A DNA stretch of 54,522 nt from a virus. Lineage: Duplodnaviria; Caudoviricetes. Where the stretch lies: IMG/VR virus record IMGVR_UViG_3300020395_000014, positions 1-54,522 of that record. The stretch is one strand, 5' to 3'. The notes under the pieces were generated by a model, which ran no database searches, was not told the origin of the DNA, and was given only the letters and a program-made list of their open reading frames with translations. Shown here in pieces: positions 11,768 to 39,341 of the stretch; position 1 is the first letter of the stretch, and each line of letters starts with the position of its first letter. The translations under genes and the position numbers were made by a program.

Positions 11768-12430
11768 ATGGCAGAAAGACCAGATCAAAATTGGCAAAAC
11801 CGAGAGTATGTTAATTTCGGACCTGGATTTAGGATTGATACTGGAAATCCTCAGATGGGTTTGAATGGATCTACAGTCTATGACCTTTTTGGTTCTGGTG
11901 CTGATAATAACACTAGTTCTCTTGGAATGACTAATGGTGGATTGTATCACATATACAATGATCAGTGTATTGATATTGTTGGTGGTGCTAAAGCAAAAGA
12001 TGGTGAATGTTGTATTAATATTATTGGTAAGAATGGGGATGTTACCATAACTGCAATGGCAAATGGTCAAGTTAAAATAACTGGTAAAAATATTACAATT
12101 GATGCTGATGAAGATATTAAAATAGATGCTGGAAAAAAGATGACTTTAAAAGCATCGAATGAAATTGAATTGGATACACCTGTTTTAAATACCACTGCTA
12201 TGGCTGGTAATCTTGCTCCTCGTGATGTAACTTTTGGTGGATTGGTCTTTAGTGGTACTGAGGTTGGAACACCTGAGATTGCAAAATCATTTACTGGTGG
12301 TTCTTTTAAAAGTCCATTTAAAGATATGGCAAGTAGTATGGAGAAAATGGCAGCAAATTCTGGTATTAATGCTGCATCTATTGAGAGTGCTGCTTCCAGT
12401 CTTGAGGATAAACTTGGAGGACTTCTATAA
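11768..12430 (+). CDS. gp5 C-terminal-like beta-helical spike protein
   Basis: Repeated short beta strands (GDVTITAMANGQVKITGKNITIDADEDIKIDAGKKMTLKA) as in gp5/VgrG spikes. Confidence 0.6.
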   Translation: MAERPDQNWQNREYVNFGPGFRIDTGNPQMGLNGSTVYDLFGSGADNNTSSLGMTNGGLYHIYNDQCIDIVGGAKAKDGECCINIIGKNGDVTITAMANGQVKITGKNITIDADEDIKIDAGKKMTLKASNEIELDTPVLNTTAMAGNLAPRDVTFGGLVFSGTEVGTPEIAKSFTGGSFKSPFKDMASSMEKMAANSGINAASIESAASSLEDKLGGLL

Positions 12431-15400
12431 TGACTCAGGAAGAGAATTTTGGGGGACTGGATAATTTTAAGGTAGGTAATGTTGCCGAATTTTATAATGA
12501 TGTTCATGTTTATGGAAAATTATATGCTGATTTAGAAGGAACTGCTTCTGGAGGTACAGGAACAGGTGGTGATGGGACATTTATAAATCTTGACGTAGAA
12601 AAGAATATTACTATTGGTGGTGATTTAAGAGTTGAAAATCTTATTGATACCGATTATTTGACAGTAAGACACAGACTTCATGTAGGTGTTGGTGGTACTG
12701 TATTAACAGTTATATCAAAAGGTGAGATAGCTGATGGTGAATATGGTAATAGAGTAGGTATAGGTACTACCCAACCAGATACAAAATTCCAAGTAGGAGA
12801 TAAATCTTTTGTTGTTACTGAAGGTGGTTCTACAGGTATAGGTACTACTCAACCTGATGGAATATTCCAAGTAGGTAATGAATGTTTAACTGTTACTGTT
12901 AACCCGTGTAGAGTCGGAATAGCAACTACAGTACCTGATGGAAGATTTCAAGTTGGATATAGAGAAAAATCGTTTATTGTTGCTTCTGATCCAGTAACTG
13001 GAGTATCTTCGGTAGGTATAGGAACTACTCAACCGTATCAAAGATTCCAAGTTGGAAAATGGGATGACTCTTTTGTTGTTACTGATACTGGTATAGTTGG
13101 TATTGGAAGTACAAATCCTGGTAATATACCTGGATACAATGCTTCGCAAGAAGGTCCGATTAAACTTGATATTGAAGGATCTGTAAAGATTGATAAAAAT
13201 ATTATTGACTCTGCAGATTCTCCAGGTGCAAATGGATGGTATTTAAATCGAGATTCTAATGGAATTAGGTGGGTAAATGCATCTCCTGTAAATCTTGATG
13301 GAATATATGTACAGGATGAGAGTGTTTATTTACCTATTAATGGTACTTCTCAGTTATTCTCGACTATTAATTTTAGACAGGTTAATAGTCTTGGATTAGG
13401 AACTGATACCGTACTTCCTATCCCTGATCCAGAAAATCCAACACAAATTGCAAGAATACAAACTCAAGATTTGTGGGGTCATGTAGGATCTGCTAATGAT
13501 GCACCAATCTATAGGATGACTAAGGTTGGTATTAAAAATGATAATCCAAGTACTGATTTAGATATTTCTGGCACAGTTCATGCAACAGGTGCTGTTGATT
13601 TTGACACTACATTGAATACTGATGGTGCTGTTACATTTAATTCTACATTAGACGTAGATGGTGCTACAACTCTTAATAATACATTAGATGTAGATGGAAT
13701 AGCAACATTTAATGATCTTACAGATTCTACAAGTCCTACTGCTCCTGCTTCCGTTCAAATTGATGGTGGTGTTGGAATAGCAAAGAGATTATTTGTTGGT
13801 GGAGATACTAAAATTGAATCACCAACACAATCCACAACTAAAGACATTGGTGCTCTTGTAGTTGATGGTGGTGTTGGTATTGAGAAAGACGTTAATATTG
13901 GTGGTGATCTTCATATTCATGGTACTACACAATCTCCAACTAAGGATCTTGGTGCTTTAATAGTTGAAGGTGGTGTTGGAATTGAGAAGAACTTAAATGT
14001 TGGACAGAATACAAAACTTATTGGTACTTTAGAATTAGAAAGTTCTTTAATTGATTATAATAATTTAATACCAGATCCTAACGATGCGTCTAATCCAAGA
14101 AAGGATTGGAGATTAACTTCTATTGGTGTTGGTGTATCTTGGAGACCATCTGGTGTTGAAACTGAAAATATTATCTTTGTTACATTGGATGGTGATGATG
14201 ATAATGAGGGGCTATTAGAGGGTGATGCCTTAAGAACTATTGGTAAAGCAGCAGAAAAAGCACAACCAGGAGATACAATTAAAGTTCGTTCTGGTGTATA
14301 TTATGAAGATAATCCGATTGGATTAAGAACAGATGTTACTGTAAAGGGAGAAGATATTAGACTTGTAACAATTATACCTAATAATCCTAATTGGGATGTA
14401 TTCCATGTTAGAAGAGGATGTTTGATTGAAAATCTAAATTTCTCTGGTACATCAGTATCACAAGATAATACGGATTGTGCTGCAGTTGCTTTCCCACCAA
14501 CACAAGCGTATATTAGTGCTGGAGTTTCACCTGCAGCTGTAAGTGGTTTTCTTGATGTTGGTCCTGCAAATGAAGGACCAAGTGGTAGATGGAGATCTCC
14601 ATATATTAGAAACTGTACTAATTTTATGAGTAAGAGTATTGGTATGAGGATCAATGGTCATCATGTTGATGCTTCATTTACTGGAACTAATGATCTTGGA
14701 CAAGATTTAAAGAGTATGGTTTGTGACTCATTTACACAATATAATGAAGCAGGTATTGGTGTTTCTATTTCTAATAATGGATATGCCCAATTAGTTTCTA
14801 TCTTTACGATTGGAAATCAAATAGGTATTGGTTGTACATCTGGTGGGCAATGTGACTTAACAAACTCAAACTCTTCATTTGGTACTTATGGATTAGTTTC
14901 TGACGGTACTAGTGTTGTTGAATTTGATGGTAATTTAAATGCTGATATAAACGGTGAATCTGATATAGTGGTATTAAATCAAGTTAGAGATTTTAATACA
15001 CCCAGACAATTTAGAACTCCATTTGATGGACAAGGTGCTTATTTCCATTTAGATATGAATGATTATCCAGATAGTCCATCTAGTGCATCAATTACCAAAC
15101 CTTTACAATTTATAAGAGGTGTTACTGTTGTTAATGGTGGTAATCCTGGTGATTATGCTGCATCTGCACCTCCTCTTGTTACTGCTACTCTTCCAGAAGG
15201 TCCAGAATCAATTTTTGCTGAGTTTTCTCCTAATGTAAGTGCTGCTGGAACTATTACTTCTGTTGATATTATTGCTAGTGGTAGGAATTTCTTACCAACC
15301 CAAAATGTTGTTTTGAGTATTTCTGGAAATGGATCTGCACAATTAACAGCAGATATGGATCCAATTTTATATACTATTGATGAAGCAACCACAGTTTCTT

Positions 15401-15762
15401 CAGTTACTGGATTATCTACAGTAACTTTTAATGAGTTTATACCTTATAAGGTTAAGTCTACAAGTAAGATGGAATTTGTAAGATTGAGTAGAATTATAAC
15501 CAGTTCACATTCCTTTGAATATATTGGTGCAGGTACGGATATAAATATTGCGAACCCCTTCCAAGGTGGAAAACCAATACCTGAGAATGAAGTTGTTGCT
15601 ATAAACGGTGGACAATGCCCATTCACAAGTACCGATCAGAAAGGTAATTTTAGAATTGGTGATGGTCTAACTATTGACCAGACAACTTCTACTATTAGAG
15701 GAAGAGACTTTAATAGAGCAATACAAGCACAAATGACCCCGTTAATTTTAGCGTTGAGATAA
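12430..15762 (+). CDS. virion structural/fibre protein with VGIGTTxP and GGVGI repeats and a C-terminal beta-helix-like domain
   Basis: About five VGIG.T.P..FQVG repeats; three GAL.V.GGVGI.K-type repeats; TI..A...A.PGDTI.V.SG.Y.E beta-helix cap. Confidence 0.75.
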   Translation: MTQEENFGGLDNFKVGNVAEFYNDVHVYGKLYADLEGTASGGTGTGGDGTFINLDVEKNITIGGDLRVENLIDTDYLTVRHRLHVGVGGTVLTVISKGEIADGEYGNRVGIGTTQPDTKFQVGDKSFVVTEGGSTGIGTTQPDGIFQVGNECLTVTVNPCRVGIATTVPDGRFQVGYREKSFIVASDPVTGVSSVGIGTTQPYQRFQVGKWDDSFVVTDTGIVGIGSTNPGNIPGYNASQEGPIKLDIEGSVKIDKNIIDSADSPGANGWYLNRDSNGIRWVNASPVNLDGIYVQDESVYLPINGTSQLFSTINFRQVNSLGLGTDTVLPIPDPENPTQIARIQTQDLWGHVGSANDAPIYRMTKVGIKNDNPSTDLDISGTVHATGAVDFDTTLNTDGAVTFNSTLDVDGATTLNNTLDVDGIATFNDLTDSTSPTAPASVQIDGGVGIAKRLFVGGDTKIESPTQSTTKDIGALVVDGGVGIEKDVNIGGDLHIHGTTQSPTKDLGALIVEGGVGIEKNLNVGQNTKLIGTLELESSLIDYNNLIPDPNDASNPRKDWRLTSIGVGVSWRPSGVETENIIFVTLDGDDDNEGLLEGDALRTIGKAAEKAQPGDTIKVRSGVYYEDNPIGLRTDVTVKGEDIRLVTIIPNNPNWDVFHVRRGCLIENLNFSGTSVSQDNTDCAAVAFPPTQAYISAGVSPAAVSGFLDVGPANEGPSGRWRSPYIRNCTNFMSKSIGMRINGHHVDASFTGTNDLGQDLKSMVCDSFTQYNEAGIGVSISNNGYAQLVSIFTIGNQIGIGCTSGGQCDLTNSNSSFGTYGLVSDGTSVVEFDGNLNADINGESDIVVLNQVRDFNTPRQFRTPFDGQGAYFHLDMNDYPDSPSSASITKPLQFIRGVTVVNGGNPGDYAASAPPLVTATLPEGPESIFAEFSPNVSAAGTITSVDIIASGRNFLPTQNVVLSISGNGSAQLTADMDPILYTIDEATTVSSVTGLSTVTFNEFIPYKVKSTSKMEFVRLSRIITSSHSFEYIGAGTDINIANPFQGGKPIPENEVVAINGGQCPFTSTDQKGNFRIGDGLTIDQTTSTIRGRDFNRAIQAQMTPLILALR

Positions 15763-15763
15763 G

Positions 15764-16801
15764 ATGGCAATAGCACCCGTAAATAAGTTTATTAATATTG
15801 CTGTTCCAGTTTCTCCTGGATTGCAAAAAATATATGAGGTTCCAACTGGTAGTACATCTTTGTTGTTATATGCTCAAGTTGCAAATGTTGGTGTTGGCAT
15901 AACTTACCCAAAAGTTACATTTTTTCAAAGAAGAGAATCAAGAAGTACTGGTAATACAAGAGATGTAAGAATTATACAAGATGCAGAAATACCACCTAAT
16001 GATGCTTTAATATTAGTAGATGGTAGAATAGTTTTAGAAAAAACTCCTATAGTTCTTGATAGGGTTTATATTAAAGGTACTCAACAGAATGTTGGTATAG
16101 TTACTGGTGTTGATTATGATGAACCAACAGGAATTGCTACTGTAATGTGTAAAGAAAATCATGGATTTATTGCTGGAAATGAAGTTACTTTAGGTGGATT
16201 GTATTTTACTTGCTCATCATATTCTGGAATTACAACTAATGTTTTTCCAGACCCTCAACAATCTTATACTGTTGATAGTATAGTTGATAATGTTGGTATA
16301 TCAAGAACATTTTCAATGACTGTTGGAGGAGCAAGTGGTAATCCTCATACTTATAATTCTGCTTTACATAGATTCTCAAGAGCAAATTTTGAAGCAGTTG
16401 AAGTTATAAGTGGTGGTTCTTCTGGGTCTAAATTTAATGTTACTCATGCATTGTATAATGGAGATAATATTGCAAAAACTATGGAGGGTATTACTTTAGC
16501 ACCTGGAGAATTGGTATTGACTATAGGTGCTAATAGTTTATCTAATGGTGATAAAATTAAGATAGTGGATAATTCAGTATTCTTTAGATGCTCTATGGAT
16601 GATTATTATACGGAACATTCTTATCCACGAGATACTGATCCTGCTGGATCATCATCAACATCTACTAATGAACTAACAATTGCTGTTGTTGCTACTAATA
16701 GTAGTATAAGGGTTAATGTTGGTCAGAGTCGTGCTGGTGGATTTGTTGCTCCTTTGGAAATGGAATTAACTGCGAGTGTCTTAGAAAACAGTAATGTCTA
16801 A
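15764..16801 (+). CDS. virion structural protein
   Basis: Beta-rich; Y...TG..T.....HG...G..V.L.GL module typical of cyanomyovirus virion proteins. Confidence 0.6.
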   Translation: MAIAPVNKFINIAVPVSPGLQKIYEVPTGSTSLLLYAQVANVGVGITYPKVTFFQRRESRSTGNTRDVRIIQDAEIPPNDALILVDGRIVLEKTPIVLDRVYIKGTQQNVGIVTGVDYDEPTGIATVMCKENHGFIAGNEVTLGGLYFTCSSYSGITTNVFPDPQQSYTVDSIVDNVGISRTFSMTVGGASGNPHTYNSALHRFSRANFEAVEVISGGSSGSKFNVTHALYNGDNIAKTMEGITLAPGELVLTIGANSLSNGDKIKIVDNSVFFRCSMDDYYTEHSYPRDTDPAGSSSTSTNELTIAVVATNSSIRVNVGQSRAGGFVAPLEMELTASVLENSNV

Positions 16802-19163
16802 GAAGTATATTAGCGGTAGGGCTAAACGAACCCCCCAAGATCAATTAAAGGACGATAGGTATAGGTATCTTGGATTAGAACAGGCAGAGCCTAATCTTGC
16901 CGATCCTATAACTAGCCCTCCTGTTCCTTCTGGACAACAGTATCAGTTGGTTTCTGTTCCTGGTTTTGAGGGTAAAAGATATTGGGTTCCTGTTGGTGGT
17001 GGAGTAATTCCAGGTGCTATTAGTGTATATGATGAAGGTATTCTTGTTAGTGCTGCAAGTAGTATAACCCAACTTAATTTTGTAGGTGCAGCAGTAACGG
17101 CTCAAGTAGATGTTCAACATCCTTCTGGTCATCCAGGTATTGCTGCAACTGTAACAGTTATTCCTGTTACTATAGGAGAAGATCCTCCATTAGATCCAAA
17201 TCATGGTGAATTGTGGTGGGAAAATGATCATGGTGATTTGTGTATTTACTATGATGATGGTGATAGTAGTCAATGGGTAACAGTAATTGCTGGTGGTGGA
17301 GTTGGTCCTCCAGGTCCTCCAGGTTCTCCTGGACCAGGTGGTGGTCCTCCTGGACCTCCTGGACCTCCAGGTTCTGGTGGTGGTGATGGAAGTCCAGGTG
17401 AAGATGGTCCTCCTGGTCCTCCTGGTCCTCCAGGTGGTCCTCCTGGACCTCCTGGACCTCCAGGTTCTGGTGGTGGTGATGGTAATCCTGGTCCTCCTGG
17501 TCCTCCTGGACCTGGTGGTGGAACCATTGATAGTGTAAAGCAATACAGAACTCCTGGTGTAGAGAGGAGTTGTGAAAGTCCAGTATTTGTAGTTAATAAT
17601 GATACTATTGGTATTGGATCTACAAGTAATGCTTACGGAAATAGATTTTCTCAAGAGGAAGATCCAACAACTGCTCCTGGTGGTAGTTGGACTGTTTGTG
17701 ATGGTGATTTATGGTATGATACTTCAGCAACTTCAGGATCTGCTTCTGGTAGCGGTATTTCTTTAAATATAAATCTTCAAGATATTTTATCATTATCTAA
17801 TGATGGAGAACTTAGTGCTGATGATGCAAATGCGGATAATATAGTTTTTTGGGATGATTCTGAATCAAAATTAACATATTTAACTCTTGGTACAAATTTA
17901 TCAATCACTGGTAATACAATTAATGCTTCTGGTGGTGGAGTAACTGATGGAGATAAAGGAGATATAACCGTATCAAATGCTGGTACAAATTCTGAGAATT
18001 GGAATATTGATGCTGATACTGTTGGTACTACTGAATTATCTGCAACAGGTACAGCAGATGCTACAACATTCTTGAGAGGAGATAATACTTGGCAGCCTAT
18101 TAGTGGTATTGGTGGTGGAGGTGGTAGTCCAGGTGGTTCAACAACATTTCTTGGACTTACTGATACACCAAATTCATTTACTGCTAATAAGTGGTTAAAG
18201 GTAAATTCTAATGGAGATGCTCTTGAATGGACAGATGCTCCTACTGGTGCTACTGTAACTACTGATGATGTTCCACCAAGCAATCCTTCTGATGGCGATC
18301 TTTGGTGGGATTCTGTCAATGGTATTTTAAATGTATATTATGAAGATGCTGATAGTTCACAATGGGTTAATGCCAGTGGTAGAGGTACAGGTGGTAGTGG
18401 AGGTAGTGGTCTTAGTGTAGTTACTGATGATGTTCCACCAAGTAATCCTTCTGACGGTGATCTTTGGTGGGATTCTGTCAATGGTGAGTTAAAGGTATAT
18501 TACGAAGACGTTGATAGTTCTCAGTGGGTTGATGCTAGTGGCGGTGGTGCAGAAGGTCCACCTGGTCCTCCTGGTGCTGATTCAACTGTAGAAGGTCCAC
18601 CTGGTCCTCCTGGTACTCCTGGCGGTCCACCTGGTCCACCTGGTCCTCCTGGTGCTGATTCAACTGTAGAAGGTCCACCTGGTCCTCCTGGTGCTGATTC
18701 AACTGTAGAAGGTCCGCCTGGTCCTCCTGGTGCTGATTCAACTGTAGAAGGTCCGCCTGGTCCTCCTGGTGCTGATTCAACTACTCCTGGACCTCCAGGT
18801 CCACCAGGAGGTGGAGCATTAGTAACTACTGATGATGTTCCTCCAAGTAATCCTTCTGATGGTGATCTTTGGTGGAATTCTGTTGATGGTATTTTAAATG
18901 TATACTATCAAGATGCTGATAGTTCTCAGTGGGTTAATGCCAGTGGTAGGGGTACAGGAAGTGGCGGTGGTGGTACATCAGTAACTACTGATGATACTCC
19001 TCCAAGTAACCCTTCTGATGGTGATTTATGGTGGGATTCGGATACAGGTGAGTTAAAGATATATTATCAAGATGTTGATAGTTCTCAGTGGGTTGATGCT
19101 GCTAGTGGAGGAAGTTCTTCTGGCACTGGTATGTTTAGATCTAATTGGGATATGCCCCTCTAA
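16794..19163 (+). CDS. collagen-like fibre scaffold with five DGDLWW domains plus one half-domain
   Basis: GPP repeats; five P..P..G(D/E)LWW.....L..YY.D..SSQWV copies; ends MFRSNWDMPL. Confidence 0.8.
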   Translation: MSKKYISGRAKRTPQDQLKDDRYRYLGLEQAEPNLADPITSPPVPSGQQYQLVSVPGFEGKRYWVPVGGGVIPGAISVYDEGILVSAASSITQLNFVGAAVTAQVDVQHPSGHPGIAATVTVIPVTIGEDPPLDPNHGELWWENDHGDLCIYYDDGDSSQWVTVIAGGGVGPPGPPGSPGPGGGPPGPPGPPGSGGGDGSPGEDGPPGPPGPPGGPPGPPGPPGSGGGDGNPGPPGPPGPGGGTIDSVKQYRTPGVERSCESPVFVVNNDTIGIGSTSNAYGNRFSQEEDPTTAPGGSWTVCDGDLWYDTSATSGSASGSGISLNINLQDILSLSNDGELSADDANADNIVFWDDSESKLTYLTLGTNLSITGNTINASGGGVTDGDKGDITVSNAGTNSENWNIDADTVGTTELSATGTADATTFLRGDNTWQPISGIGGGGGSPGGSTTFLGLTDTPNSFTANKWLKVNSNGDALEWTDAPTGATVTTDDVPPSNPSDGDLWWDSVNGILNVYYEDADSSQWVNASGRGTGGSGGSGLSVVTDDVPPSNPSDGDLWWDSVNGELKVYYEDVDSSQWVDASGGGAEGPPGPPGADSTVEGPPGPPGTPGGPPGPPGPPGADSTVEGPPGPPGADSTVEGPPGPPGADSTVEGPPGPPGADSTTPGPPGPPGGGALVTTDDVPPSNPSDGDLWWNSVDGILNVYYQDADSSQWVNASGRGTGSGGGGTSVTTDDTPPSNPSDGDLWWDSDTGELKIYYQDVDSSQWVDAASGGSSSGTGMFRSNWDMPL
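18552..18783 (+). repeat. 39-bp tandem repeat encoding [13 protein letters not shown]
   Basis: gaaggtcc(a/g)cctggtcctcctggtgctgattcaactgta repeated about 5 times with one interruption. Confidence 0.9.
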
Positions 19164-19166
19164 ATA
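19160..19166 (+). promoter_or_regulatory. late promoter CTAAATA overlapping the upstream stop codon
   Basis: ctaaatagtaaacagga...attatggcagcaacagt; same context recurs at 38938. Confidence 0.7.
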
Positions 19167-19187
19167 GTAAACAGGAATTAGAATATT

Positions 19188-19577
19188 ATGGCAGCAACAG
19201 TCTTAACAGGAACAATACCTAATGGTGGTAGTTTTAGTTACACCAATAATACTGGTGGAAATGTTAGATTTATAGTTTATCTTTTAAGTGCTGGCTATAG
19301 CAATGGTAGTAGTGCAGCTGGAACATTTAGAATTGGTGGTTCAGGTAATAATGGGGTACAATGGACTCTATATGAAACCACTAATGTTGGTAAATATGTA
19401 GCTAACGGGGGGTCCGCAGCATTTCCACATGGATTTGCAAAACAAAATGAAGGAGAACCATTTCCAGTTGAATTTATGTTAGGTGATGGTCATTCTGTTA
19501 ACTGGAATCCACCAACAGCAACTAGTTGGTTTTCTAATCCAAAATATAATTTTGTGGTGATACCAGAAAATGGATAA
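19188..19577 (+). CDS. small beta-rich virion protein (paralog of 38967..39341)
   Basis: MAATV..G....SYTN.TG.NVR ... EF.L.DGH ... YN.VVIPE.G shared with the 38967 ORF. Confidence 0.75.
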   Translation: MAATVLTGTIPNGGSFSYTNNTGGNVRFIVYLLSAGYSNGSSAAGTFRIGGSGNNGVQWTLYETTNVGKYVANGGSAAFPHGFAKQNEGEPFPVEFMLGDGHSVNWNPPTATSWFSNPKYNFVVIPENG

Positions 19578-34477: not shown

Positions 34478-36421
34478 ATGTCTACTAAAAAATATGTTGT
34501 TACTCTAAAAAAATATGATGATTTGGACAACTTTTATACTGAGATGGAAGCATCATCTGGTAATGCAACTGTACCAACTAGAGTTTGTAACTGTACTGAG
34601 AAAAGAGATATTAGTAGAAATACAAATTATGAATTAACTGATGAGGAAGCAGTAGAACTGAGAAAAGATTCAAGAGTATTGGCTGTTGAATTAGAACCAT
34701 CTGCTCTTGGTATATTTCCAGAACTTAATGCGAGTGGTCCATATCAGAATGAATCTAAAACTTATACTAGATTTTGGAACCAGACTGATCAAGCATCTAC
34801 TTGGAATAATACACATAAAAATTGGGGAATTGCAAGACATTTAGATGGTTCTAATATTCCACCAGATTGGGGAATGTTTAATGCTTCTGGTATAGAAAAT
34901 CAAACAAAGATTACTAATACAACAAGTTCTGGTAAAAATGTTGATATTGTGATTATGGATCATTTTATTAATTCAGATCATCCAGAATTTGCAATAAATG
35001 CTGATGGTAGTGGTGGATCTAGAGTTAATCAAATAAATTGGTTTGGGAGTGATTATGCATCTATGATGTCGGCTAATAACATGGTTACTTCTGATACGTA
35101 TAGTTATGGTTCACAGAGTTATACTATTAGTGGTACTACATGGAGTGAGGGATCTGCTGGAAGTAATCATGGAAATCATGTTGCTTCACTTGCGGCTGGA
35201 AATACTCATGGTTGGGCAAGAGATGCAAACATTTATAATATAACTTTTCAAACCAATTTATTGAAAAGAAATCATGGAAATTCTGCTATAGGTGGTTCTG
35301 CACCAGATTTTTCTTATGATTGTATAAGACACTGGCATAATAATATAAAGACAGTAAATCCAGCAACAGGTAGAAAGAATCCAACTATTATTAATATGAG
35401 TTGGGGTAATACTAACAGAATGCGTCTTAGTCAAGTGACTGGTATGGATGGTCGAACTGGATTTTCTGATATGGCTGGAAGAAGTGATTTTGAAAAAAAA
35501 GCAATACTTGAGGCTGAAGGAATATTTTGTTATTATGCCTATAGTGCTGTTGATAATGATAATGTTTGGTGGTGCGAAATGGGATTTTATACCTATTTTT
35601 TGGCAGGACCAATAGCTGATTTAGAGGACATGTTTGAGGAGGGAATAATTGTAGTTTCTGCAGCAGGTAATTATTCTACAAGAGGTACAATACAGAATGA
35701 AATAGATTATAATACTAAAGTATATGGTAAGCCCGATTGGGCAATTGGATTAACAGGATACAATGAATGGTGGGCAATGAGAGGATCTACACCTCAGAAT
35801 TTAAGAACTACTACAGGTGATGTAATTGCTGTTGGATCTGTTAGTCCTGATGAAGCAGAATATAGAGATAATTTTAGTACATATAGTAAAGCAGTTGATA
35901 TATGGGCTGTAGGAAATGGAACTGTTGGTGCTTATTATGATGATAAAGGTGATGGAGGTAGTAATAATAATGGTAATGGGGTAAATGCTCGTATTAAACA
36001 AGATCCAAGAAGTAGTAGTTTTTTTATTGGACCAATGACTGGAACAAGTATGGCATCTCCTCAAGTGGCAGGAGTAATTGCTTGTCTTTTGGAACAGGAA
36101 CCAAATTTAAAACAATCAGATGTTCTTCAACATTTAATAGAGAATGCAACAGATAATGTTGGTAATGATGGTGATATAACCAATTATGCACTCCGAAAAA
36201 AAGGACTGTTGGATTCTCCTAATAGAATGTTAAAATATGTTAAAAAAAGACCAGAAACTGGAACTGTTTATCCACATCCTAATCATAGTAATCGTAGACC
36301 AGATATAGATAGTACATCTGTAACAGGAAGGAAATATCATAGTAATGGTGGAAGTTTTACTAGTGGTGCAACTGGAGTTAAATGGCCAAGAACAAGGCAG
36401 GTAGTGACAAAACCTATTTAA
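34478..36421 (+). CDS. subtilisin-like serine protease (S8) with I9-like prodomain
   Basis: Catalytic D (VDIVIMD), H (HGNHVASLAAG), oxyanion N (AAGN) and S (GTSMASPQVAG); SD GGAGG at 34465-34469. Confidence 0.92.
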   Translation: MSTKKYVVTLKKYDDLDNFYTEMEASSGNATVPTRVCNCTEKRDISRNTNYELTDEEAVELRKDSRVLAVELEPSALGIFPELNASGPYQNESKTYTRFWNQTDQASTWNNTHKNWGIARHLDGSNIPPDWGMFNASGIENQTKITNTTSSGKNVDIVIMDHFINSDHPEFAINADGSGGSRVNQINWFGSDYASMMSANNMVTSDTYSYGSQSYTISGTTWSEGSAGSNHGNHVASLAAGNTHGWARDANIYNITFQTNLLKRNHGNSAIGGSAPDFSYDCIRHWHNNIKTVNPATGRKNPTIINMSWGNTNRMRLSQVTGMDGRTGFSDMAGRSDFEKKAILEAEGIFCYYAYSAVDNDNVWWCEMGFYTYFLAGPIADLEDMFEEGIIVVSAAGNYSTRGTIQNEIDYNTKVYGKPDWAIGLTGYNEWWAMRGSTPQNLRTTTGDVIAVGSVSPDEAEYRDNFSTYSKAVDIWAVGNGTVGAYYDDKGDGGSNNNGNGVNARIKQDPRSSSFFIGPMTGTSMASPQVAGVIACLLEQEPNLKQSDVLQHLIENATDNVGNDGDITNYALRKKGLLDSPNRMLKYVKKRPETGTVYPHPNHSNRRPDIDSTSVTGRKYHSNGGSFTSGATGVKWPRTRQVVTKPI

Positions 36422-38185: not shown

Positions 38186-38941
38186 ATGTCGAACCATATT
38201 GATTTTCCTAATAGTCCTACTATAAATGAGACTTACCAATATGGTAGTGCTATATGGAAGTGGGATGGTGTAGTATGGAGAAGAATCGACGGTGCTGGAA
38301 ATACAGGTGCTCCTGGACCTGAAGGTCCTCCAGGACCTGGTGGATTAACTGGTCCTCCAGGTACTCCTGGAACTCCTGGTGATGATGGGGATGAAGGTCC
38401 TCCTGGTCCTCCAGGTCCTCCAAATGGACCTCCTGGACCTCCAGGTCCCGATGGAGATGATGGAACTCCTGGTAATCCTGGTCCTCCAGGAACTGGAAGT
38501 CCAGGTACTCCTGGTACTCCTGGAACTCCTGGACCTCCAGGTGAAGATGGTAATCCTGGACCTCCTGGTCCTGCTGGTGGTCCTCCTGGTCCTCCAGGAA
38601 ACCCAGGTCCTCCTGGTCCTCCCTCTCCTGGACCTCCAGGTCCTGATGGAGATGATGGAACTCCTGGTACTCCAGGTACTCCTGGACCTCCTGGTCCTGC
38701 AGGTATTGCTGGACTACAAATCAGTGAAACTCCACCAACTTCTCCTGCACCTTCAGAGGGTGATTTGTGGTGGGAAAGTGACACTGGAGCATTATATGTG
38801 TATTATAATGATGGTAATAGTGATCAATGGGTAGCAGTAGCACAAGGTCCTGCTGGATCTCCTGGTCCTCCAGGTTCTGCTGCTGGTAGTGGTGCTGGTC
38901 CATTTGAAAGTCAATGGCATATTCCAATGGGATTGCCATAA
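38186..38941 (+). CDS. short collagen-like fibre/adaptor (FPNSP head, one GDLWW domain)
   Basis: IDFPNSP...WKWDG..W; GPP repeats; [19 protein letters not shown]...QWV; ends [12 protein letters not shown]. Confidence 0.82.
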
Positions 38942-38944
38942 ATA
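38938..38944 (+). promoter_or_regulatory. late promoter ATAAATA overlapping the upstream stop codon
   Basis: Same context as 19160. Confidence 0.7.
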
Positions 38945-38966
38945 GTAAACAGGAAATTAAAAGATT

Positions 38967-39341
38967 ATGGCAGCAACAGTATATTCAGGATCGGGTAATT
39001 GGAGTTATACCAATAGCACTGGTGAGAATGTTCGTGTGATTATTGGTATTGCTCTTGCAGCAGATAATTCTCAAGCATCGACTGTTGGTATTAAATTGAG
39101 ATTTGGATCAGCTGGATCTGGTTATATGTTTGAAGAAACTAGTGGAACTAATGATAGATTTGTAGGTTTTGGTAAACATATTACAAGTTCTGGTCAAATG
39201 ACCAGAGCTGTAGCAACTAATGGTGGAACTTTTGTAGATGAATTTTGGCTTGCAGATGGACATACTGCTAATTTAGATGCTGTTAGTGGTTCGTACCCTA
39301 TTAAATGGTACAATATAGTGGTGATACCAGAGAGTGGATAA
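38967..39341 (+). CDS. small beta-rich virion protein (paralog of 19188..19577)
   Basis: Shared N- and C-terminal motifs with the 19188 ORF. Confidence 0.75.
   Translation: MAATVYSGSGNWSYTNSTGENVRVIIGIALAADNSQASTVGIKLRFGSAGSGYMFEETSGTNDRFVGFGKHITSSGQMTRAVATNGGTFVDEFWLADGHTANLDAVSGSYPIKWYNIVVIPESG

Follow-up and report, generated by a model that had tools for sequence, protein, structure and literature searches.

Ocean cyanomyoviruses encode many fibre genes. Here, we analyzed a stretch of 54,522 nucleotides from a tailed virus (Duplodnaviria; Caudoviricetes; IMG/VR record IMGVR_UViG_3300020395_000014, positions 1 to 54,522; hereafter the window), which is the tail-fibre region of a T4-like cyanomyovirus, and concentrated on two fibre genes named 16794 and 36428 after their start positions. 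We found that a GDLWY motif in the 16794 protein belongs to a conserved domain of about 68 residues (the socket) and that the 36428 protein opens with a conserved head of 16 residues resembling a beta-hairpin (the plug). Related phages have these two units fused in one chain, split into two genes precisely at this junction, or encoded in neighbouring genes. On the basis of these sequence comparisons, we give a little better than an even chance to the idea that the hairpin head of 36428 docks non-covalently on the socket of 16794 and mounts a second receptor-binding fibre on an anchored one.

In the proposed joint, the GDLWY motif would be the exposed C-terminal strand of the socket in the baseplate-anchored 16794 protein, and the first 16 residues of 36428 would form a foldon-like beta-hairpin. 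A trimeric head made of these hairpins would dock on the socket, carrying with it the collagen and tail collar parts of the second receptor-binding fibre. Through such a contact, the two proteins would reproduce in trans the arrangement of strand and hairpin that is present within a single chain in complete DGDLWW modules. Since the socket appears to be folded alone, addition of a strand at its edge is likelier than donor-strand complementation. We infer that the two elements bind each other, that they also do so in the window, where their genes are 19 kb apart, and that strand addition is the mode of binding. An earlier sequence-only reading of the window had joined the two proteins as two halves of one module. 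The comparative link between them (split pairs, fusions, synteny, co-occurrence) was found, but instead of two module halves we observed a conserved domain and a foldon-like hairpin.

The socket domain of 16794

Positions 17619-17729 of the window translate into STSNAYGNRFSQEEDPTTAPGGSWTVCDGDLWYDTSA, which lies inside the open reading frame (ORF) 16794-19163 and is followed by ATSGSASGSG. When the window was scanned in six frames for G[DE][LIVM][WF][WYF], we obtained 10 matches. Nine of them are complete modules (..DGDLWW..L.VYY..QWV), in which GDLW(W) is followed in the same chain by L.VYY..QWV. The match at 17703 is the only one that lacks this hairpin, and here DTSATSGSASGSG comes after GDLWY. 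Thus, translation and motif scan confirmed that 16794 carries a half-module motif without hairpin ahead of a Ser/Gly linker, as had been read from the sequence. Its interpretation as truncated or free half module did not hold. When the motifs of 18 related loci were added to those of the window, 44/63 were complete modules, and each of the remaining 19 distinct hairpin-less motifs (19/19) was the last strand of a larger conserved domain with two cysteines. In 18/18 related loci, this domain gives way to a Gly/Ser-rich linker or to collagen.

The resemblance of the motif and of the 36428 start to the two halves of a module is short but measurable. In hhalign comparisons, the socket domain matched the full module over 11 columns only (CDGDLWYDTSA aligned with SDGDLWWDSVN, probability 53%) and the 36428 head matched 11 columns of its second half (SQWVDASGGGA, probability 32%). 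Profile-profile matches of this length and probability would be compatible with a chance resemblance, in which GDLWY and QWV are nothing but short aromatic motifs common in fibre proteins. We consider this explanation very improbable, since both elements are conserved families with strong statistics and the genomic linkage of domain and hairpin is far above the control rate. The socket end resembles the first half of a complete module and the 36428 head the second half, and the split pairs and fusions described below are collinear with a complete module that runs into collagen. In contrast, complete modules carry both halves in one chain, have WW where the socket has WY, and contain an acidic or aromatic hairpin (LKVYYED), whereas the 36428 head is basic (VKIRKDG). 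Moreover, the socket has about 45 extra residues and two cysteines upstream of the motif. A PDB profile search with the complete module gave no match. In Pfam, 16794 matched Cyclophil_like2 (PF18050, expectation value (E) 1e-8, window 18249-19121), but this value is the sum of weak matches to its several DGDLWW modules. For a stretch of two modules by itself, the score stays under the cut-off (17.9 vs 22.7 bits) and the assignment looks spurious.

The same stretch as the socket was present in 18 IMG/VR loci and in P-SSM2 gp024. In alignment A1 (19 sequences), the elements K, Q, R, C, IGI, TSNA, GN, PT, C, GD and WYD are invariant. The window copy carries all of these columns and follows the family pattern VKQ(Y), Cys, P(I/V).V, IGIGSTSNAYGN, PT, Cys, GD(L/I)WYD. 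The socket profile retrieved 197 proteins at E<=1e-3 and 88 at E<=1e-10 from 1.84 billion representatives; most of the proteins span the whole profile. In the window there was a single match (E 5.5e-44). No family in Pfam or PHROG matched the domain at E<=1, its profile had no usable relative in the PDB (best E 0.36), and a Foldseek search of the PDB with the low-confidence socket model returned nothing at E<=10. Protein Atlas gave sub-threshold leads only (PF26696 PTL_trimer, score 0.88, in 16% of one cluster). In the accessible parts of the literature and in the family libraries (Pfam, PHROG, PDB) we found no description of the socket or of the hairpin head.

Among 203 distinct socket copies, both cysteines were aligned in 174, the first one was shifted by a few residues in 16 (the DNYC subfamily) and neither was present in 13, while no copy had a single cysteine. 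This joint presence or absence points to a disulfide, or at least to a contact, that pins the GDLWY segment to the core, and the socket is probably stapled by a disulfide. An AlphaFold2 monomer model of the socket (80 residues) was of low confidence (mean predicted local distance difference test (pLDDT) 62, predicted template modelling score 0.50) and contained only three strands, SVKQ, RFSQ and LWYD, the latter at residues 67-70. With so few strands in a one-chain model, LWYD pairs there with a strand of its own chain. Folding of the motif with its flanking sequence, which the sequence-only reading had held to speak against docking, is therefore partly the case (pairing within the chain at pLDDT 62, co-varying cysteines). 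Taken together, the flagged motif is part of a folded unit, an autonomous two-cysteine domain, and not a loose half.

Two further fibre proteins resemble the socket. A 1110-aa fibre protein of the window (12430-15762) contains repeated (V/T)GIGTTQPD.(K/I/R)FQVG motifs similar to the socket core IGIGSTSNAYGNRF, and this repeat, which is common in fibres, may be the origin of the socket. In phage S-B68 (L177, record 104608 onward), a fibre of 3110 aa starts with GVASTPNSVFQVG..GDTWY..LSVW..YW, a unit distantly related to the socket that has no cysteines and is followed by its hairpin within one chain.

The hairpin head of 36428

The 36428 protein is a collagen fibre without FPNSP head, as previously read from the sequence; this follows from its translation and from its match to Pfam Collagen (PF01391, E 1e-25, 89.6 bits, cut-off 27.2). 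Its C-terminal part (residues 345-575) is a tail collar (PHROG 1800 'tail collar fiber protein', E 9e-21), and annotated tail-collar proteins were among its tblastn matches; no Pfam collar family was matched at E<=0.01. Residues 1-12 follow the pattern M-x-x-K-(V/I)-R-x-x-G-x-W-(V/I), after which linker or collagen begins. Such a start opens 51 distinct ORFs in the fetched loci, all 51 aligning from M1, and these sequences constitute hairpin profile A8. When A8 was compared with the PDB, its positions 4-15 matched residues 13-24 of the T4 fibritin foldon (1rfo_A, YVRKDGEWVLLS, E 0.012). The best 60 PDB matches listed all represent this same foldon hairpin (T4 fibritin chains, engineered fusions), and constructs with two foldon copies reached E 3e-4. 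The 36428 head alone matched the foldon at E 0.63. For the FPNSP head, hhalign comparison with the hairpin head was not significant, and its profile had one weak PDB match (8y6v_I, E 0.63) and none to the foldon.

The foldon is the C-terminal trimerisation domain of T4 fibritin and a self-trimerising unit. It is represented in the PDB by 1rfo, 1aa0, 1avy and many fusion constructs, and the foldon-collagen fusions 1nay and 9gfr were among our matches. The phage heads share its hairpin core (..VRKDGEWV..), and both elements occur in fibres of T4-like phages, where they adjoin trimeric fibrous segments. In contrast, the phage heads are N-terminal and precede collagen or collar, whereas the foldon is C-terminal and follows a coiled coil. 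In the accessible part of PMC12644675, the foldon is described as 27 residues, with a polyproline-II segment preceding the beta-hairpin. The phage heads lack such a preceding segment, as their hairpin starts from Met1 and the reading frame of 36428 is closed by a stop codon two codons upstream.

The foldon's missing half may be provided by the Pro-rich ..DPT..CDGDLWYD segment of the socket. For a joint of this kind, three socket tails and three 16-residue hairpins would form one trimeric beta module in trans, a split foldon-like unit. We hold this version tentatively and rate it clearly below an even chance. The socket tail would then comprise the Pro-rich segment and the GDLWYD strand, disulfide-stapled to its domain, and a hairpin located directly before its own socket would serve as pass-through adaptor, so that several tips could be stacked. 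If this is the case, a universal 16-residue plug would let marine phages mount and swap receptor-binding proteins on an anchored fibre.

The foldon match can also be explained without any contact between the two elements. The two-cysteine domain might be an autonomous neck or shaft bead, and the hairpin a foldon-like trimerisation nucleus or a virion-attachment head whose partner is something else, such as the baseplate or a further module. Conserved fibre-gene order and recombination at module boundaries would then plausibly account for the synteny and for the fused and split forms. This explanation is supported by the matching of the hairpin profile to a unit that trimerises by itself, by collagen-like repeats that directly follow the hairpin in 21/51 heads, by hairpin heads that precede unrelated domains (P0092, P0103, L018), by the monomer model and cysteine covariation, which suggest that the domain folds alone, and by the evident shuffling of modules among fibre genes. 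Its weak point at the protein level is that the heads lack the polyproline half that belongs to the foldon fold, as far as this is described in PMC12644675. In favour of the proposed docking, at least 11/51 hairpin-headed proteins are no longer than 200 aa and are made up of a hairpin, a short linker and a collar domain, which leaves the hairpin as their sole candidate element for attachment to the virion. We regard independent beads as a serious but less likely possibility.

Split pairs, fusions and gene order

One line of evidence for the proposed docking comes from genes that end at the socket. Among 150 socket representatives, 11 end exactly at ..GDIWYDTS(T/S/G). In the DNA of this socket-ending form (79 loci, 77 domain matches), the ORF stops no more than 5 residues past the motif in 9/77 domain matches. 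For five of these nine, an ORF beginning with MPIKIRQGGAWV.., MALKVRKDGAWV.. or MAIKVRQGGAWV.. comes next, at a distance of 23-37 nt downstream and in varying frames, and its start is followed by collagen-like repeats. For the other four, which end with ..GDIWYQIT before the stop codon, the next ORF starts with the hairpin-like variant MAASFIKKSDGNYYLRL. One further pair of the canonical form was present in the marine virus AG-345-L05 and one of the variant form in the isolated phage S-SKS1 (..GDVWYQVS before the stop codon, then MGAKFIKKSDGNFYMRL). In total, 11/11 genes that stop 3-5 residues past GD(I/V)WY and for which downstream DNA was available have a hairpin-start gene 5-65 nt downstream, the two ORFs of a pair lying in differing frames.

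In these pairs, a change of the socket end goes along with a change of the hairpin type. Six pairs (L026, L039, L041, L042, L049, AG-345-L05) have the canonical hairpin, and in five variant pairs (L096, L098-L100, S-SKS1) a socket gene ending with ..WYQ(I/V)(T/S) is followed by M..(S/K)FIKKSDGN(Y/F)Y(L/M)RL. At least three canonical lineages and two to three variant ones have conserved such split pairs. The upstream proteins of L026, L039, L041, L042 and L098 carry the anchor N-terminus of 16794, and thus homologues of 16794 stop at the socket and have a hairpin-headed gene next to them. A reading in which the elements are unrelated and the half module is merely part of a domain was abandoned when split pairs were found at the socket boundary.

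Fusions in the order of a module (socket, then hairpin) were observed for 3/222 distinct domain copies (P0067, L057, L058; for example ..CEGDIWYDTSTPSVRIYKDGAWVNLS..), and P0106 is a weaker case. The fusions L057 and L058 are also homologues of the anchor, and the sequence after the hairpin of L058 resembles, by eye and with neither alignment nor E-value, the hairpin-headed next gene of L022/L023. In a permuted order, 20/150 representatives start with the hairpin, and 16 of these have the socket 3-11 residues later. When relatives of the fused protein P0015 were searched for in IMG/VR, none of 56 loci contained a hairpin-then-socket protein. The 16/150 representatives with a hairpin shortly before the domain, together with the three or four proteins with a hairpin directly after it, would also fit a hairpin that caps the socket only within one chain, the separated arrangement of the window being a non-interacting relic of gene fission and shuffling. 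We judge this improbable, since a distal protein that had been split off could not be retained on the virion, yet the split pairs are conserved across lineages, and since the minimal hairpin-plus-collar proteins need an attachment element.

To quantify the genomic linkage, hairpin-headed genes were called by a position-weight score and the other genes in the same loci served as controls. The ORF calling was naive, and the hairpins counted were also those used to train the scoring matrix. The next gene was hairpin-headed for 30/66 distinct domain genes and for 33/311 others (odds ratio 7, p 5e-10), the p-value being indicative only, since these related loci had been collected by using the domain as bait and their independence is overstated. 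A hairpin-headed ORF started within 2.5 kb downstream of 41/55 domain genes, as compared with 52/278 others (odds ratio 12.7). After clustering at 60% identity, 9/14 clusters had an adjacent pair and 11/14 a hairpin within 2.5 kb. The three exceptions are L057, which has the hairpin in the same chain, L096, which has a variant hairpin, and L091. In the position-weight scan, hairpin-headed genes were also located beside the socket gene in L019, L021, L022 and L023. Small conserved genes follow the socket-bearing genes of distant relatives, either MSTL(V/I)TQT..KNSSGTEKGQL or cysteine-rich MKLEQGKYCPLIKKDC.. (compare PSSM2_029); they occur in L021, L036, L038, L040, L045 and L048 and in L062-L065, L074 and L085, and in several of these loci a hairpin-headed gene comes after them.

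A census of 15 whole records with both profiles (E<=0.01) yielded one copy of each element in P-SSM2 (socket in gp024, plug in gp027), P-SSM5, G006 (estimated 100% complete), G008, G009 and AG-345-L05. The window likewise holds exactly one socket and one hairpin. Neither element was detected in S-H9-1, S-N03, S-CRM01, S-WAM2, Sf-FR1 and S-TIM54, and S-B68 gave a weak partial match only (E 0.003), which corresponds to the distantly related unit with hairpin described above. The domain without canonical hairpin was present in G007 and S-SKS1, the latter having the variant hairpin, while a canonical hairpin without domain occurred in 0/15 records. These data bear out the expectation of the sequence-only reading that GD(L/I)WYD ends and M.xK.R..G.W starts are linked, which holds for split pairs, fusions, synteny and whole records.

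Several observations weigh against docking of 36428 on 16794. The socket occupies an internal position in the window and in its relatives of the P-SSM2 type, and its gene is separated by 3.5-19 kb from that of the plug instead of adjoining it. About 480 residues follow the socket of the window, which bears on the geometry of a trimer placed on a trimer. The socket appears to be self-sufficient, as judged from the cysteine covariation and the low-confidence monomer model. No hairpin-headed gene was called within 2.5 kb of 14/55 domain genes, among them those of the window and its closest relatives, and the sockets of L053 and L091 have no hairpin gene nearby. About half of the hairpin-headed next genes (33/63) come after a gene without the domain. 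L016 holds hairpin, collagen and socket in one chain, and G007/L061 (estimated 100% complete) has the domain but no hairpin at E<=0.01. The last-mentioned record and the hairpin genes that come after genes without the domain are also what independent beads would predict. On the other hand, independent beads do not account for the 11/11 domain-ending genes with a hairpin start next to them, for the joint change of domain end and hairpin type, or for the lack of records that have a canonical hairpin but no domain.

Attachment systems and features of the fibre region

In branched systems of receptor-binding proteins (RBPs), such as those of E. coli phage G7C, CBA120 and Klebsiella KP32-type phages, docking domains of an anchor fibre carry a second RBP by its N-terminal peptide. 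The proposed plug-and-socket joint shares with them the idea that an anchored fibre carries further RBPs and that a short N-terminal element sits on an internal domain. It differs in that the plug has only 16 residues and the socket belongs to an unannotated family; in Pfam and PHROG searches of 16794, we found no T4 gp10-like docking domain and no known anchor peptide. Chaperone-usher pili are built by donor-strand complementation, in which the acceptor cannot fold without the donor strand. In both systems a strand or hairpin of one subunit would complete the fold of another, but the socket described here appears to be folded alone. Branched dual-RBP systems are mentioned in the accessible part of PMC13579863, and the plug-and-socket joint probably is a new variant of such modular fibre attachment.

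If the proposed joint exists, a plug of 16 residues and a socket of 68 residues would explain how small hairpin-plus-collar proteins reach the virion and how the exchange of host-range modules takes place, whether through recombination or through the splitting and joining of genes at a single fixed boundary. It would also define two conserved families that have no entry in Pfam or PHROG, and it would connect the foldon, which is in wide use, with a family of half-foldon heads that occurs in nature.

Table 1. Positions of socket, plug and fibre-gene features in the window
Feature	Position	Strand	Basis or remarks
Anchor ('scaffold') fibre gene 16794, 789 aa	16794..19163	+	ORF and translation
Complete module (..HGELWWENDHGDLCIYYDDGDSSQWV..) leading into collagen, with the junction uninterrupted	17169..17306	+	Motif scan
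Socket domain, about 68 residues, T244-S311	17523..17726	+	VKQY strand, ERSC, IGIGSTSNAYGN core, DPT, CDGDLWYDTS
First conserved cysteine, C260	17571..17573	+	Co-varies with C302
Second conserved cysteine, C302, directly before DGDLWY	17697..17699	+	Invariant in A1
GDLWY, 'half module' and proposed docking edge	17703..17717	+	Six-frame scan, translation
Ser/Gly linker ATSGSASGSG after the socket	17727..17756	+	Translation
Hairpin-headed collagen and tail-collar fibre gene 36428, 575 aa	36428..38155	+	ORF, Pfam, PHROG
N-terminal hairpin, putative plug, 16 residues	36428..36475	+	Sole window match to profile A8, E 6.6e-11 (the window head itself is one of its 51 rows)
F..NW.(M/I)P(L/F) ends with MAATV... 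neighbours	19130-19577, 38900-39341		Also in L006, L008, L010, L012, L013, L017, L001 (PSSM2_024/025)

The window comprises the whole 54.5-kb record, the completeness of which is estimated at 22%, and its nearest annotated relatives are the Prochlorococcus phages P-SSM2 and P-SSM5. The features discussed are listed in Table 1. The 16794 protein is composed of an N-terminal anchor, one complete module, collagen, the socket domain, the Ser/Gly linker, further beads, four complete modules and the tail ..FRSNWDMPL. Its N-terminus (MSKKYISGRAKRTPQ..DDRYRYLGLEQAEPN) is common to PSSM2_023 and recurs, as described above, in socket-ending and fused proteins. It matches PHROG 2097 and 9729 ('tail fiber protein'); Pfam Collagen was not matched at E<=0.01, though Gly-Pro-Pro runs are plain in the translation.

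Both fibre genes are mosaics when compared with P-SSM2 (L001 6744-12897). In 16794, a gp023 head is joined to a PSSM2_024 body, and in 36428 a gp027 (PSSM2_027) head is joined to the C-terminal collar of gp023 (PSSM2_023). The break points of both genes fall in collagen repeats. The gene at 15764-16801 overlaps the start of 16794 by 8 nt, as is also the case in P-SSM2 (022/023), which suggests coupled translation. Directly upstream of 36428, the window encodes a subtilase (34478-36421; Pfam Peptidase_S8, E 6e-25), and in L011 the gene upstream of the hairpin-headed gene (upstream of 5718) has a similar tail end. A protease within the fibre cluster might process fibres. Finally, each of the fibre genes that terminate with the short tail F..NW.(M/I)P(L/F) has, 24 nt behind it, a small gene (about 125-140 aa) that starts with MAATV.... 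This arrangement is a second conserved neighbouring pair, the small gene possibly encoding a tip protein or a chaperone.

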